Shown here one piece after another: positions 24,618 to 34,463 of a stretch of 34,463 nt of DNA. Under the pieces are notes generated by a model. That model made no database searches. It was not told where the DNA came from and saw only the letters and a program-made list of their open reading frames with translations. Both the position numbers and the translations under genes were made by a program. Within the stretch, counting starts at the first letter, position 1. Each line of letters starts with the position of its first letter. Origin of the DNA: Promethearchaeota archaeon (GTDB lineage Archaea > Asgardarchaeota > Lokiarchaeia > Sigyniarchaeales > SOKP01). The DNA lies in NCBI GenBank assembly GCA_048940445.1, contig JBHLON010000033.1:1-34463 (forward strand), given 5' to 3'.

Positions 24618-25757
24618 TTAATGATTTAAAAAGGCGGGTTTGGGAAAATCCGTTCCTTCAATAGTAGAAGTTACATATGGAGATATCGGACCTCTCCCTA
24701 AAGCCATTATTCTTATTTTTGATTTTAGTGAAGGATCAAGAGCAGTCCCGAATTTAAGCGAGGCTTCTTCGGGAATTTCACTTGAAATTGTAGCGATTAT
24801 CTTGTCGATTTTGGATAAAGAGATTTTATGGTCGCCTGTTACTGATACAATACATTTATCGACTTGCATAGGATCAGGTTCTAATAGAGGATTATGCAGA
24901 GCTAGTTTAGCCTTTTTAATCAAGTCTGATCCGTCCCCAAAAGATTCTGTAATACCAATCAATCCGCTAGGAATTTTATCTTTTTTCTCAAAAACTTTCC
25001 TAACATCAGCATAATCAATATTTATCAAACCACAATTATTAATGAGATTAAGAATTTCACGAATGCATCTAATTAAAACCTCGTCCATAATTTTAAACCC
25101 AGTCAGGATTGGAATGTTTTCATTAAATCTTAGAAGATTATCATTAGGAATAGGTATAAGACAGTCAGTGTATTGAATTAATTCCTCAAGTCCCGATTTA
25201 GCCCTTTTTTTTCGCTCTTTTCCTTCAGAGGTAAATGGAATTGAACAGAAAGTAACCACAGTTGCATTATTTTTCTTGGCTTCTCTTGCCACTATAGGAG
25301 CAGCACCAGTCCCAGTCCCTCCACCTAAACCAAATGTTAAGAAAACAACATCTGCTTTCAATGTTTCTGACAATCTTTCTATATCTTCTTCGGCCGCTGT
25401 AGCCCCAATATGAGGGTCGTTTCCAGATCCTAATCCATTACAAGTTTCCTTGCCTATTAAAAGCTTTTTATTAGCATTAGAATAATATAGGTCATGAGCA
25501 TCGGTATTTATATTTAAAGTTTCTACGAAATCATTTCCAATATCTTGCATTCTTGATACAGTATTATTCCCTGCTCCGCCAATTCCTACAACAGTACTTC
25601 TAATCTTTAGAATTTTTATTAGATCAGATAGATATTTATCATCATCTAGGTTTAAGGATTGATTATTTTTATTATAACGAGCAATTTCATTAAAACGAGA
25701 TCTAACTGATATTCTTGATTTTGCAAGATCAGTTAAATCATATTCTTTATCATTCAT
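24618..25757 (-). CDS. ftsZ: Cell division protein FtsZ
   Basis: VVGIGGAGNN, INTD, G.GSGNDP, tubulin signature GLGGGTGTG, PF.SEG, T7 loop INIDYAD. Confidence 0.97.
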   Translation of the reverse strand: MNDKEYDLTDLAKSRISVRSRFNEIARYNKNNQSLNLDDDKYLSDLIKILKIRSTVVGIGGAGNNTVSRMQDIGNDFVETLNINTDAHDLYYSNANKKLLIGKETCNGLGSGNDPHIGATAAEEDIERLSETLKADVVFLTFGLGGGTGTGAAPIVAREAKKNNATVVTFCSIPFTSEGKERKKRAKSGLEELIQYTDCLIPIPNDNLLRFNENIPILTGFKIMDEVLIRCIREILNLINNCGLINIDYADVRKVFEKKDKIPSGLIGITESFGDGSDLIKKAKLALHNPLLEPDPMQVDKCIVSVTGDHKISLSKIDKIIATISSEIPEEASLKFGTALDPSLKSKIRIMALGRGPISPYVTSTIEGTDFPKPAFLNH

Positions 25758-29892: not shown

Positions 29893-30975
29893 TTAATATT
29901 TTGAAGGAGTTTTTGATTTTATTTTATATTTTGGTATCTCTTTAACCTTTCTTAATTCATTCTCAAATACTCTTTTTTCTTTAAGAAATCTCTCTTTGTC
30001 ATTCTCTAATTTTTCTCTTTCCCTTCTAATAGTATCTTTTTCATTACTAATATTTACCTTTTCTTTTTCTAATTGTTTTATTTCATTGTTTAATCCTTTG
30101 TATTTATCTTCTAATCCACTGATTTTATGTTCTAATGAAAAAAATGTGTTTTCTGCCTTTGGGACTTTCTTATCTAACTCACTTAATCTTGCCTCTTGTG
30201 TTCGTTTCTTCCGTTCTAAATCTTTTACATCATTTTCAACTTTGTCTCGAAATTTTTCTAAGTCTGTTCTTTTCTTTTCAATTTCACGATTTTTATCTTT
30301 TAGGTCTTTTCGTTTATAACGTAATTTTTCTTTTTCATCCTTTAATTTTCTTCTCTCATCATTGATCCTATTTTTTTCATCAACAATTTCTTTTTTCATA
30401 TCACCTATTTCTTTTTTCAGATTGTCTCTATCTTTACCCAATGCTTTTGTCTCATTTCTTAAATCAAGCAGTTCAGCTTCTAATTTTTCAATGGTTCTCT
30501 CTAAAGCTTCCTCTCTCCTTTCCATTCCTGGAATTTTAGTTTTTATTTGTTTAATGTGCGACTCTGCTCTTTCTTTTTCTTTTCTTAAGTCATCCTTATC
30601 CTTTTCTAACGCAGCTTTTAATTTACTTAGTTCGGTATTCTTTTGATCTAATTCTCGCTCTTTTGAATCTAGATCATTTCTATATTGTTTTACTTCATTT
30701 TTCATTCTTTGTAATTCATTTTGTAAGTTTCCATGTTGATCTAAAAGGTCTTTAACTTCAAGTTCTTTTTCTTTTCTTTTCTTTTCAAGATCTTTAATAT
30801 TATCCTTATATCCTTCAATTTTTTCGATTAATTTTTCCCATTCAACTTTCTCTTTCTTTAATTTTACTCTTTCTTGCTTTATCTGTTTCAATAATTTAGC
30901 ATCTGGAACAATATCTAATGTTTCTTCTGGTGTTTTTTCTCGAATTTGATATTTAGGTATTTTATTTTCTTTCAT
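29893..30975 (-). CDS. Long coiled-coil protein with matching IPKY..KTP end motifs
   Basis: ~320 aa of K/E/R-rich heptads; N-term KIPKYQIREKTP and C-term EIPKYKIKSKTP; no ATPase motif and no TM segment. Confidence 0.85.
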   Translation of the reverse strand: MKENKIPKYQIREKTPEETLDIVPDAKLLKQIKQERVKLKKEKVEWEKLIEKIEGYKDNIKDLEKKRKEKELEVKDLLDQHGNLQNELQRMKNEVKQYRNDLDSKERELDQKNTELSKLKAALEKDKDDLRKEKERAESHIKQIKTKIPGMERREEALERTIEKLEAELLDLRNETKALGKDRDNLKKEIGDMKKEIVDEKNRINDERRKLKDEKEKLRYKRKDLKDKNREIEKKRTDLEKFRDKVENDVKDLERKKRTQEARLSELDKKVPKAENTFFSLEHKISGLEDKYKGLNNEIKQLEKEKVNISNEKDTIRREREKLENDKERFLKEKRVFENELRKVKEIPKYKIKSKTPSKY

Positions 30976-31155: not shown

Positions 31156-31533
31156 ATGGGTTTTGATGAAGAATTTGATGATGAATTTGATGAAGATTTA
31201 GATGAAGATTTAGATGAACCTTCTACTAAAACTCCTACTGAAGAGGTTAAATCCAAGACCCCTAGTGTAAAACCAGTTGTTGAAGGAAAAAAGATTTCAG
31301 TATTCTTTTTATCAACTATAGGACCTGGGGAGAAAAAGCAAAAACTTTTAGTTTATACAGGAAACAAAATAGGAGAAATAAAAAAAACTGTAGCTAATTT
31401 ATTTGGTCTAGATCCTGCAGATTTTCATTTGTCTTCTGGAGGGGTTACTATGGAAGAAGATGCTGCATTAGCTGAATATAATGTAGCAGAAGGAGATGAT
31501 ATTTTATTAATTCCAGCAAGTACAGCGGGTTAG
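31156..31533 (+). CDS. Ubiquitin-like protein 1 (acidic N-tail, ends LIPASTAG)
   Basis: IGEIKK..FHLSSGGVTMEED..L.EYNV..GDDILLI parallels ubiquitin IENVKA..QRLIFAGKQLED..L.DYNI..ESTLHLV; terminal Gly directly before the stop; AGGTGG SD-like motif. Confidence 0.88.
   Translation: MGFDEEFDDEFDEDLDEDLDEPSTKTPTEEVKSKTPSVKPVVEGKKISVFFLSTIGPGEKKQKLLVYTGNKIGEIKKTVANLFGLDPADFHLSSGGVTMEEDAALAEYNVAEGDDILLIPASTAG
31162..31218 (+). repeat. 12-bp imperfect tandem coding repeat, (F/L)D(E/D)(E/D) x ~5
   Basis: tttgatgaagaa tttgatgatgaa tttgatgaagat ttagatgaagat ttagatgaa. Confidence 0.85.
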
Positions 31534-31579: not shown

Positions 31580-32386
31580 TCATTTTTTTTCTTTTCTGGA
31601 AGGAATTAAGACAATCTCATCGTCATCATCTAAGTTATATTCAACCATTTTCAAATTTTCTTGTAAGATTAAACCTCCAGACGAGAGTACAAAATTACTT
31701 AAATCGTAATTGAATAGAACTCCCAGTTTCTCCTTGATTTCATTTACTAACTCAGAAGTTTCAATAATAATTATTTTAGTTTTTTCACCAGATTCGATTA
31801 AAGATCTGACATAAACTCGTATTCTATCTTGCATTCCAATATTTATTTTAGGGGGAGTGAAGATAATTAGTTGATCAGGATTATCTTTATTCTTTAACAT
31901 ATCCTCAATTAATTGCTTTCTTTCTTGAGGAGAAAAATACAATAATTCCCTTAAAAAAAAAATTTTGTCCATTTTTGAAAGATTTAGAAGATCAATTTTC
32001 TCCAATTCTTCTAAATTAAAAACTGAGAAGAGATAATCATCCATTGAGGGTATCTCATTATATGATTCATGTGAATTTGCATAGTTATCTATTAGAGGCA
32101 TTGCATCAAAATAATCCTCAATAAATTCACTTGTTTTTTTCCTTAATGATTTTTGTTTAGGCATAAATTTAGGTTTTGTAATCCTTTTATTAGGGACATA
32201 TTTAGACTTTTTTATAATATAAAAAGTACCAGTAGATACTACTGCTACACTACTAATCGTAAAAATAAGATAAAAAGGGAAGGATTCTATTTTTAATAAG
32301 AACAGAATTAGATAAACCAATATGAACATTGTATAAAGAGTAATAATTCCTATAATTCTAAATCTTTTTATCATGATTTTTTTCAT
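31580..32386 (-). CDS. Two-TM membrane protein with C-terminal ubiquitin-like domain lacking a terminal Gly
   Basis: Two N-terminal hydrophobic helices; C-terminal SGEK..VNEIKEKLG.LF....F.LSSGG....EYNL..DDEIVLIPSRKEKK aligns with the neighbouring Ubls. Confidence 0.85.
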   Translation of the reverse strand: MKKIMIKRFRIIGIITLYTMFILVYLILFLLKIESFPFYLIFTISSVAVVSTGTFYIIKKSKYVPNKRITKPKFMPKQKSLRKKTSEFIEDYFDAMPLIDNYANSHESYNEIPSMDDYLFSVFNLEELEKIDLLNLSKMDKIFFLRELLYFSPQERKQLIEDMLKNKDNPDQLIIFTPPKINIGMQDRIRVYVRSLIESGEKTKIIIIETSELVNEIKEKLGVLFNYDLSNFVLSSGGLILQENLKMVEYNLDDDDEIVLIPSRKEKK

Positions 32387-32448: not shown

Positions 32449-33126
32449 TTAGTTTGATCTATTATTGATCAATTTGAGAATGTAATGATATTTTTCTAAA
32501 TCTAATTCAAATAAAGGTCTTTTATTTTCCTTTTCAACATTTATAATTTTTAAATTAGTTAAGACCTTTATGTACTTCTTAACTGTATTATAATTTTTTT
32601 TCAATTCTTTTGTGATTTTTGTTAATTTTACTTTTTTATTTTCTACTTTCATGAATTCAATTATTTCTTTTACGATATCTTGATTGAGATAATAATAAGG
32701 CTCATCTAATTCTGGATTTGAATCATATTCAAAAACAACTCGTTGATTTTCAATCTTTCGTGATCGTGTAAGTTGGAATTTCTCTAAGCATGATAAATGC
32801 CACAGAGCTTGATTACTCCCAATATTTATAGCTTTCATGATCTCATTAATATTTGATGGATTTTTTTTGATGTAATTGTATATTTCATTTCTTATTGGAT
32901 GTTCAATTATATTATTTTTCATTAGTTTTGTTCCAGGAATTATTATTCGTTTTTTGATTAGATTCTTTATGATTTTCTCAATCTTATTTCTATTTAAGTA
33001 AGGATAAGCTCTCGATCTATTATTAATAAAAGATATAATATTCTCTAATGAAAAGAAAGGTTTCTTATTTAGGTATTCTTTTACTAGTTCAAGAACAACA
33101 GAATCAACTTTATCTGGAGAACTCAT
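32449..33126 (-). CDS. Tandem winged-helix transcription regulator (ArsR-like/COG3398-like)
   Basis: R.EIYNYI..NP..INEI......WHL..LE.F and a second HTH LTKITKELKKNYNTVKKYIK.L. Confidence 0.82.
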   Translation of the reverse strand: MSSPDKVDSVVLELVKEYLNKKPFFSLENIISFINNRSRAYPYLNRNKIEKIIKNLIKKRIIIPGTKLMKNNIIEHPIRNEIYNYIKKNPSNINEIMKAINIGSNQALWHLSCLEKFQLTRSRKIENQRVVFEYDSNPELDEPYYYLNQDIVKEIIEFMKVENKKVKLTKITKELKKNYNTVKKYIKVLTNLKIINVEKENKRPLFELDLEKYHYILKLINNRSN

Positions 33127-33389
33127 AAGATATAATTTTTATTTTGTTTATAAATTTAATTTAGACATCCAAATCTTCTCTCTAAAACGATCTTTTCTAG
33201 TTCATATATATTATTAGATATTCATTTAATTTATAGATATATCTTAGAAAGAGCCAAGCTTCAATGCTATTTGTTTCTAAAGAAGTTGATAAAAAGTTCA
33301 AAATCATTCCAATTGGTTTTATAATATCTTGTTATTGCAATTTTATTAAGTTTAATTAAAAAAATAACAAAATAACGAAAGTGATATAA

Positions 33390-33716
33390 ATGAGTTTTAA
33401 AGATGAATTTGATGAAGATTTAGAACCTGTTAAATCTAAAACACCAGTATCTAAAACTCCTGCTGCGGGAAAGAAATTAACTTTATATTTTATGTCAACA
33501 ATCGGACCTGGTGAAAAAAAGGAAAAATTAATCGTAAATGATGCTAATCAAGTGAATGACATCAAACAAACTTTAGGAAATCTATTTGGACTCGATCCTG
33601 ATGAATTTCATTTATCATCTGGTGGTGTTACTATGGAAGAAGATAGTCAATTAAGAGATTACAATCTGAGTAATGGTGACGACATTCTTTTAATTCCAGC
33701 AAGTACAGCTGGGTAA
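33390..33716 (+). CDS. Ubiquitin-like protein 2 (acidic N-tail, ends LIPASTAG)
   Basis: 56/82 identical to Ubl1 over the beta-grasp domain (hand count); directly upstream of the E1 gene. Confidence 0.9.
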   Translation: MSFKDEFDEDLEPVKSKTPVSKTPAAGKKLTLYFMSTIGPGEKKEKLIVNDANQVNDIKQTLGNLFGLDPDEFHLSSGGVTMEEDSQLRDYNLSNGDDILLIPASTAG

Positions 33717-33778: not shown

Positions 33779-33798
33779 ATTTATTAAAGGTGACTATA

Positions 33799-34463
33799 AT
33801 GAATAATAAATCAGAGTTTTTTGGCAAGGGATTATCAAGCGAAGAAAGAAATTTGTATGATCGCCAATTTCGCCTTGAAGGATGGTCTCAGAAAATAGTA
33901 AAAAACTCGAGAATATTAATTGCGGGTGTGGGAGGTTTAGGATGTGAGATTGCTAAGAATTTAGCTATGTTAGGTATAGGTCACTTAGATCTTGTAGATT
34001 TAGATATTATTGAATATTCTAATTTAAACCGACAAATACTTTTCACAGGGGTAAAGGTCGGTGTCCCTAAAGCGATTGCAGCTGCTAAAAAGTTAAAAGA
34101 AATAAATCCCAACATTATTGTTAAGGGATATCACACTTCACTTGAGAGACTAGATCCTGCAATTTATCAAGTAGCTGATGTGGTCATAGGAGGCCTTGAT
34201 TCAATGAATGCGCGTTTAAACTTAAATGCCCAATGTATAAGATTTAGAAAGCCATTAGTAGATGGAGGAGTCTCTGGTTATCATGGTCATATATATACAA
34301 TTTTTCCCTATCAGAATGCCTGTTATGAATGTGACCCGCTGCCTGTAATGGAAAGTGATGAAATGGCAGCATGTACTGTTGTTGGCATACCTCGTAAGAG
34401 AATTCATTGTGTTTTTAAGGGAGATATGGCATTTAAAGAAAAATTTGATAGAGATCCAAATCC
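33799..34463 (+). CDS. Ubiquitin-like activating enzyme E1 (ThiF/UBA family, UBA2/UBA3-like), 3'-truncated by the window end
   Basis: Read by hand; ATG after AGGTGA; YDRQ, GVGGLGCE, VDLDIIEYSNLNRQ, GLDS..AR, DGG, CYEC, then AACTVVGIPRKRIHC; open to the window end. Confidence 0.95.
   Translation, partial: MNNKSEFFGKGLSSEERNLYDRQFRLEGWSQKIVKNSRILIAGVGGLGCEIAKNLAMLGIGHLDLVDLDIIEYSNLNRQILFTGVKVGVPKAIAAAKKLKEINPNIIVKGYHTSLERLDPAIYQVADVVIGGLDSMNARLNLNAQCIRFRKPLVDGGVSGYHGHIYTIFPYQNACYECDPLPVMESDEMAACTVVGIPRKRIHCVFKGDMAFKEKFDRDPN

Follow-up and report, generated by a model that had tools for sequence, protein, structure and literature searches.

A membrane-anchored ubiquitin-like protein of Lokiarchaeia as a candidate tether of an adjacent wHTH regulator

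TM-Ubl, a membrane-anchored ubiquitin-like (Ubl) protein of a member of the Lokiarchaeia, probably acts as a membrane anti-regulator: its helical middle domain, here called the tail domain, is predicted to bind and hold a wHTH regulator encoded directly upstream. On the basis of the sequence comparisons given below we assign this reading a probability of about 75%. In this reading a transmembrane signalling system is split into two proteins, of which TM-Ubl would be the membrane-bound one. Because the middle domain appears to be the partner module of the wHTH protein, the tether is better supported as primary role than a scaffold of the HERP/TMUB type. Lokiarchaeia are relatives of the archaeal ancestor of eukaryotes, and the gene lies in a window of 34,463 nucleotides, which is the whole stretch of DNA that was analysed and to which positions without a contig or locus name refer.

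The ORF at 31580-32386 (−) is open over 268 aa from its first Met. TM-Ubl homologues begin at the second Met (32374), and we therefore place the gene, from its probable true start, at 31580..32374 (−) with a product of 264 aa; the ORF runs four codons further. Hydropathy, structure model and conservation indicate a two-helix membrane hairpin (residues ~7-54, 32213..32356 (−)) with helices at about residues 7-28 and 32-54, the second of which is the best-conserved segment of the protein and contains many small residues. The basic cytoplasmic linker recognized in the alignment (residues 55-77, 32144..32212 (−)) is weakly kept, with a column conservation of 0.70. The tail domain (residues 78-165, 31880..32143 (−)) reaches 0.76 in its first half and 0.87 in its last helices, and these helices hold most of the invariant residues outside the Ubl domain. 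The latter (residues 184-264, 31583..31825 (−)) was identified by alignment, Pfam PF00240, model and tree; it has a Lys-rich, Gly-less end and is as conserved as the tail (0.86 over 125 sequences). A near-invariant Pro-Pro is located just N-terminal of it. The search yielded 311 homologues at E ≤0.001, where named mostly Promethearchaeota or Lokiarchaeota proteins of 261-279 aa; one apparently chimeric sequence (P0157) was excluded from the deep alignment. Hydropathy, model, alignment and these homologues confirmed the domain order of the sequence-only reading, i.e. two TM helices, a basic linker, a helical middle domain and a Ubl domain.

Residues 184-258 of the Ubl domain match PF00240 with 26.7 bits (cut-off 25.4) and share 36-38% identity with the free Ubls on either side. 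The model of the domain resembles ubiquitin-fold structures, the best being 6fno, ubiquitin of Caldiarchaeum subterraneum (TM by target 0.80). All motifs noted at the outset (GEK, IK, LF, F.LSSGG, YN, LIP) are present in the Ubl alignment. The protein ends in IPSRKEKK, with IPSR-K almost invariant and the Gly of the modifier absent; a Gly anywhere in the last 14 residues was found in 3 of 120 homologues, and one in register with the Gly of the modifier in 1 of 120 (P0115). TM-Ubl therefore shares the beta-grasp fold of conjugatable type I Ubls and lacks their C-terminal Gly, and by its membrane anchor and cytoplasmic Gly-less UBL it belongs to the class of integral UBL-domain membrane proteins. 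Its description as a membrane-anchored, non-conjugatable paralogue of the modifier ending in PASTAG stands, given the hairpin, the Gly-less end and the degree of identity. In an unrooted Ubl-domain tree (87 columns) the TM-Ubl domains form one side of a long branch (100/100); judged by this tree, the domain had one origin. The IP-x4-G end of the modifier had suggested UFM1, for which Asgard homologues have been described (PMC12962969). The profiles speak against this identity: the Ufm1 profile PF03671 had no match in the source genome at E ≤10 and matched none of 24 family members, whereas all 24 match PF00240. In relatives the same Ubl is also fused behind other domains, namely a roadblock-like domain (by eye), a CxxC zinc-ribbon and a protein of 480-520 aa (L034:2583-3506, L038:3621-4454, L035:2866-3648, L037:4332-5156, L061:2264-3718, L063:238-1794, L064:8703-10658). 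Many of these fusions keep the terminal Ala-Gly and could therefore be conjugatable multi-domain modifiers.

A profile of the tail domain gave 125 representatives (50% clustering), mostly with the domain at the extreme C-terminus of membrane proteins of up to 2081 aa, the outer parts of which are beta-helix, laminin G, propeller-like or Ig-like. Of the 92 proteins with room upstream, 84 have a TM helix on the N-terminal side of the domain and none on the C-terminal side, and among the tail-domain proteins examined the domain was never seen ahead of a TM helix. For 42 large single-pass members, N-glycosylation sequons per 100 aa amount to 3.5 before and 0.7 after the TM helix, while K/R residues number 41 before and 183 after. 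By these features the domain serves many Loki surface glycoproteins as their cytoplasmic tail, and the Ubl domain behind it therefore lies inside the cell. Homology to these proteins (TM position, sequons, K/R) in this way settles the topology check in favour of a cytoplasmic Ubl, and a hairpin that anchors TM-Ubl with both ends in the cytoplasm is well supported. Small residues are modestly enriched in the inner half of the last TM helix of tail proteins (0.40 vs 0.31 in control single-pass proteins), and such a helix would suit dimerisation or intramembrane cleavage.

The model of the tail domain shows a confident three-helix core with pLDDT values of 86-91 over the last helices. The domain has no Pfam family, no PDB sequence match, no Foldseek match at E ≤0.001 and no Atlas match by features; VIA gave a best Z of 4.4 (rmsd 4.3, 88 aligned). 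These missing structural matches do not amount to a new fold. At E ≤1e-4 the domain hardly occurs outside the Loki family of the source genome (46 of 54 genomes); the sister family has weak copies. Of the 125 representatives, 34 have a RING-like zinc finger on the cytoplasmic side, immediately ahead of the tail (P0133, P0149, P0150, P0164 and 30 others; see also L058:3206-7606). These large single-pass surface glycoproteins are receptor-like and might combine ligase and regulator-binding functions. An adaptor role in which the tail of TM-Ubl binds the tails of such RING-bearing receptors was set aside, as the source genome has one other, weak tail gene and genus g3 has many tails without TM-Ubl. 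Stand-alone tail proteins of 82-95 aa without membrane anchor also occur (L087:2031-2309, L103:3150-3437, L104:3133-3381, L105:8739-9002) and are possible soluble anti-regulators.

The cognate regulator gene at 32449..33126 (−) encodes a multi-wHTH protein of 225 aa with ArsR / HVO_0163-like HTHs. It ends 74 bp upstream of the TM-Ubl gene and has the same orientation, so that the two cognate genes are adjacent and co-oriented like those of anti-regulator / transcription factor pairs. A gene upstream of one tail surface protein is homologous to this regulator (38% identity, E 1e-45), and the tail-wHTH pairing is repeated in most loci examined. Counted with profiles that were seeded from neighbouring genes, and with kin that are not independent, 92 of 108 tail genes are accompanied on their own strand by a regulator no more than about 700 bp from the estimated gene ends, and a tail gene accompanies 91 of 97 short regulators; for the 72 tail genes without a Ubl, chance alone would give about one such pair. 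A larger set comprises 214 distinct soluble regulators, of which 201 adjoin a tail gene; most exceptions are near locus ends. Furthermore, four genes of one genome (G080, L304-L307) encode ectodomain, TM helix, tail and wHTH in one frame, the tail ending 10-13 aa before the wHTH. The products of 1000-1553 aa are candidate one-component transmembrane transcription factors; with tail and HTH in one chain they demonstrate functional linkage and not inhibition. The initial description of TM-Ubl was thus right about an anchored cytoplasmic Ubl paralogue and missed the role of the middle domain, which pairing, fusions and covariation point to as the partner module of the adjacent wHTH protein.

Regulators fused straight to TM helices (L097, L099) have no tail domain, and none of 17 members of this longer wHTH class adjoins a tail gene. 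A more distant wHTH subfamily (L110:3409-5470, L111, L112) is found beside multi-TM proteins instead of tail genes. Two loci (L086:7376-8583, L113:2948-4212) have two tandem wHTH genes, one of them truncated, before a surface protein. At G000:C46:3-1589 in the source genome and in L081, L084 and L085 a conserved zinc-ribbon multi-TM protein with degenerate tail-like repeats at its end is followed by a wHTH paralogue of about 290 aa, and this pair also occurs in a genus without other tail-wHTH pairs.

Covariation was analysed in 179 non-redundant tail-wHTH pairs (about 137 effective sequences). No single inter-protein coupling exceeds the controls in this set. The top couplings form a cluster that joins tail profile positions 52-86 (residues 128-162) to wHTH positions 100-119 (residues 97-116, 32779-32838 (−)), which comprise the first HTH with the putative recognition helix. 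The cluster holds 11 of the top 30 couplings, whereas 70 swaps of partners between close relatives gave 5.6 on average and never more than 8; the swaps preserve phylogeny and the scan statistic is corrected for box choice. When the TM-Ubl pairs were removed, the cluster held in four of five settings and faded at the top-100 setting. The clustered covariation is suggestive of a direct tail-wHTH contact. Taken with pairing and fusions, it is consistent with a tail that binds the upstream-encoded wHTH protein, probably over its first DNA-binding HTH, and the bound regulator would be kept at the membrane and off DNA.

HERP (HERPUD1) and Usa1, which have an N-terminal UBL, scaffold the Hrd1 ligase, and TMUB1 is likewise an integral UBL-domain membrane protein. 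A comparable scaffold or decoy, in which the Ubl recruits E1, JAB, an AAA ATPase or the proteasome beside a multi-TM RING ligase while tail and regulator are passengers of the cassette where the fusion originated, appears unlikely as the explanation of TM-Ubl. Such a function would fit the conserved cytoplasmic Gly-less Ubl, the multi-TM RING-like protein encoded in the same cluster, a beta-sheet face that in the alignment is kept and is more hydrophobic than that of the free modifier, and the RING-like fingers of other tail-domain proteins. Passengers, however, should not behave as tail and regulator do: of 36 TM-Ubl loci, 35 keep the regulator adjacent, and conservation is among the highest in those tail helices that covary with it. 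Moreover, genus g3, which is rich in RING-tail proteins, does not have TM-Ubl. The scaffold and tether roles are not mutually exclusive. Like HERP, Usa1 and TMUB1, TM-Ubl has a non-conjugatable cytoplasmic ubiquitin fold attached to a membrane hairpin and belongs to a system that includes a RING-like ligase of the membrane; unlike in HERP and Usa1, its Ubl is C-terminal, is derived, in one family, from a Loki modifier and accompanies a regulator-linked domain. Homology to HERP, Usa1 or TMUB was rejected, as the Ubl belongs with the Loki PASTAG family, matches to the ubiquitin family are generic only and the domain order differs from that of HERP and Usa1. The likeness is an analogy only.

It is quite unlikely that TM-Ubl is instead a membrane-tethered co-activator or assembly site, where the tail keeps the wHTH protein folded, dimerised or positioned on DNA at the membrane without any release, and the Ubl is a degradation or docking tag of the complex. 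Single-chain ectodomain-TM-tail-wHTH and TM-wHTH genes do exist, so the regulator family can be permanently tethered unless cleaved, and transmembrane transcription regulators are common in archaea according to survey passages of PMC10269533. Nevertheless, the putative recognition helix is part of the wHTH segment that covaries, which fits occlusion better, and the small soluble tail-only proteins (L087, L103-L105) also argue against a co-activator at the membrane.

The tether gene is embedded in a ubiquitin-like gene cluster. The free modifier Ubl-A (31156..31533 (+)) is convergent on it, and Ubl-B (33390..33716 (+)), divergent from the regulator, is the first gene of a Ubl-E1-E2-JAB-membrane RING operon; both modifiers end in PASTAG. 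The following E1 gene (ThiF family, 33790..34463 (+)) is cut by the contig end, and the remainder of E1, then E2, JAB and the multi-TM RING-like gene form the start of contig C70; gene order across window and C70 agrees with intact contigs. The Ub-E1-E2-RING-Rpn11 operon type is already known from C. subterraneum and Asgard archaea (passages of PMC5654768). The present cluster resembles it in having Ubl, E1, E2, JAB and a RING-like gene and differs in that the modifier ends Ala-Gly and the RING-like protein is multi-TM; no such regulator cassette is mentioned in those passages.

Where the cassette is absent, a single Ubl gene stands directly before E1-E2-JAB-RING and a coiled-coil gene diverges from it, whereas in loci with the cassette the Ubl gene is doubled and the wHTH gene followed by the TM-Ubl gene lies inverted between the copies. 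A free Ubl is divergent upstream of the cassette in 45 of 50 loci and convergent downstream in 45 of 50. Judged by gene order, wHTH and TM-Ubl thus form a two-gene cassette that was placed between the two copies of a duplicated Ubl gene. The Ubl operon of most Asgard lineages searched lacks it, and in genome G062 the cassette is apart from the main operon (L051 vs L068). Both free Ubls have repeated KTP motifs in their acidic N-terminal arms, and so does the divergent coiled-coil protein (29893-30975) at each of its ends; Asgard loci conserve this pairing. An FtsZ/tubulin-family gene (24618-25757 in the window) is never more than a few genes away from the ubiquitin cluster in several relatives (L037, L051, L053, L056). 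A second ubiquitin-like system was found in the source genome at G000:C110:18969-23823, with a Ubl ending in VIGG, an E2-like gene, E1 and JAB, and a multi-TM RING-like gene nearby.

Of the 151 genomes of the order, 90 have full-length TM-Ubl; they belong to a single Loki family (34 of 41, 49 of 53, 3 of 8 and 3 of 6 genomes in four genera, plus the source genome), and a search of 19 genomes from other families gave none. The free PASTAG-type modifier has a much broader distribution that extends to several other Asgard families, while genus g3 has many tail-domain proteins, including many RING-tail proteins, and no TM-Ubl. With these 90 genomes and the 311 homologues, TM-Ubl is neither a chance ORF nor a one-genome rearrangement, and the proposed co-occurrence of a conserved TM-Ubl with the PASTAG modifier is borne out by the free Ubl that flanks it in 45 of 50 loci per side. 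A lineage-specific accretion, i.e. an inverted Ubl duplicate fused to a tether cassette that regulates something other than the ubiquitin operon and with the Ubl affecting stability only, is very unlikely: the restriction to part of one Loki family, the fusion of the same Ubl to several unrelated domains in relatives and the long branch would agree with it, but the high conservation of the Ubl, its single origin and the fixed position between two modifier genes do not.

The regulator cassette and the Ubl-E1-E2-JAB-RING operon have the region 33127-33389 (263 bp) in common. Between regulator and Ubl-B it contains a conserved non-coding element of 26 bp (33295..33320), a candidate operator or promoter element, which could be anchored in 39 of the 47 cassette loci; in one such locus its score is low. 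Most loci without the cassette give low scores as well, and those loci belong to other genera. The element is not palindromic and has no convincing second intergenic copy in the source genome, where a regulon scan gave only one other strong match, inside a coding gene on C134.

These features allow the tether reading to be extended. Other members of the tail-domain family would receive their input through a large extracellular domain, in place of which TM-Ubl has a copy of the modifier of the operon. The built-in Ubl may serve as the input, making the tether a standing client of a modifier-recognising protease or unfoldase or of E1, E2, the membrane RING protein or JAB. The state of the tagging system would then set the amount of free regulator, and the freed protein would act on the divergent promoter region of its own cassette and of the Ubl-E1-E2-JAB-RING operon, by activation or repression. 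We rate the chances of a tether with some coupling to the Ubl system as even. The odds fall somewhat short of even for the whole loop, in which the Ubl ties the fate of the tether to the tagging or proteolysis system and thereby regulates the Ubl operon. More doubtful is a wider view, in which Lokiarchaeia have a kinase-free transmembrane signalling family (variable ectodomain, TM helix, tail, cognate wHTH) and one branch swapped its ectodomain for a built-in copy of the modifier. A feedback loop at the membrane would thereby have arisen, in which flux through tagging or proteolysis controls Ubl-E1-E2-JAB-RING transcription, a prokaryotic counterpart of Nrf1 or Rpn4 control that evolved independently.

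In Bacillus subtilis the membrane protein SdpI sequesters the transcription factor SdpR, which has an ArsR-type HTH. The tail-wHTH pair seems to work most like such membrane sequestration systems, SdpI-SdpR and the RsgI-SigI anti-sigma pairs of Clostridium thermocellum (PMC10328401, PMC12203970). As in these, two adjacent genes encode a membrane protein and a factor thought to be held by it; paralogous pairs with variable extracellular domains and a conserved, here putative, cytoplasmic binding domain recall RsgI, and the ArsR-like HTHs of the regulator recall SdpR. Unlike in RsgI-SigI, the factor is a multi-wHTH protein and not a sigma factor, and TM-Ubl bears a Ubl and lacks an ectodomain. 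The tail domain showed no homology to SdpI or RsgI, and assignment of the wHTH protein as SdpR was rejected (model NF033789, 25.2 bits vs a cut-off of 100). The one-component transmembrane transcription regulators in survey passages of PMC10269533 have the same architecture as L304-L307, L097 and L099, whereas the TM-Ubl/wHTH system is split into two proteins; those passages do not mention Asgard archaea. The proposed logic also resembles the Nrf1/NFE2L1 proteasome bounce-back (PMC3896944), where the fate of a membrane-held factor is set by the ubiquitin and proteolysis system whose genes it controls. There is no homology, Nrf1 is itself the membrane protein, and the loop is inferred in our case.

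In the literature searched, which covered few subscription papers, there was no description of TM-Ubl, the tail domain or the tail-wHTH pair, and nothing on how Asgard archaea regulate ubiquitin-like systems or on membrane-bound transcription and ubiquitin in Asgard archaea. Tail domain and wHTH protein are a small soluble pair with a candidate DNA target of 263 bp, and both pair and target are open to in vitro work that needs no culture of the organism. The restricted range of TM-Ubl marks it as a parallel invention rather than as the ancestor of HERP or Nrf1. Should the loop be real, an Asgard lineage would have co-opted ubiquitin-fold domains as integral membrane regulatory modules, independently of eukaryotes.
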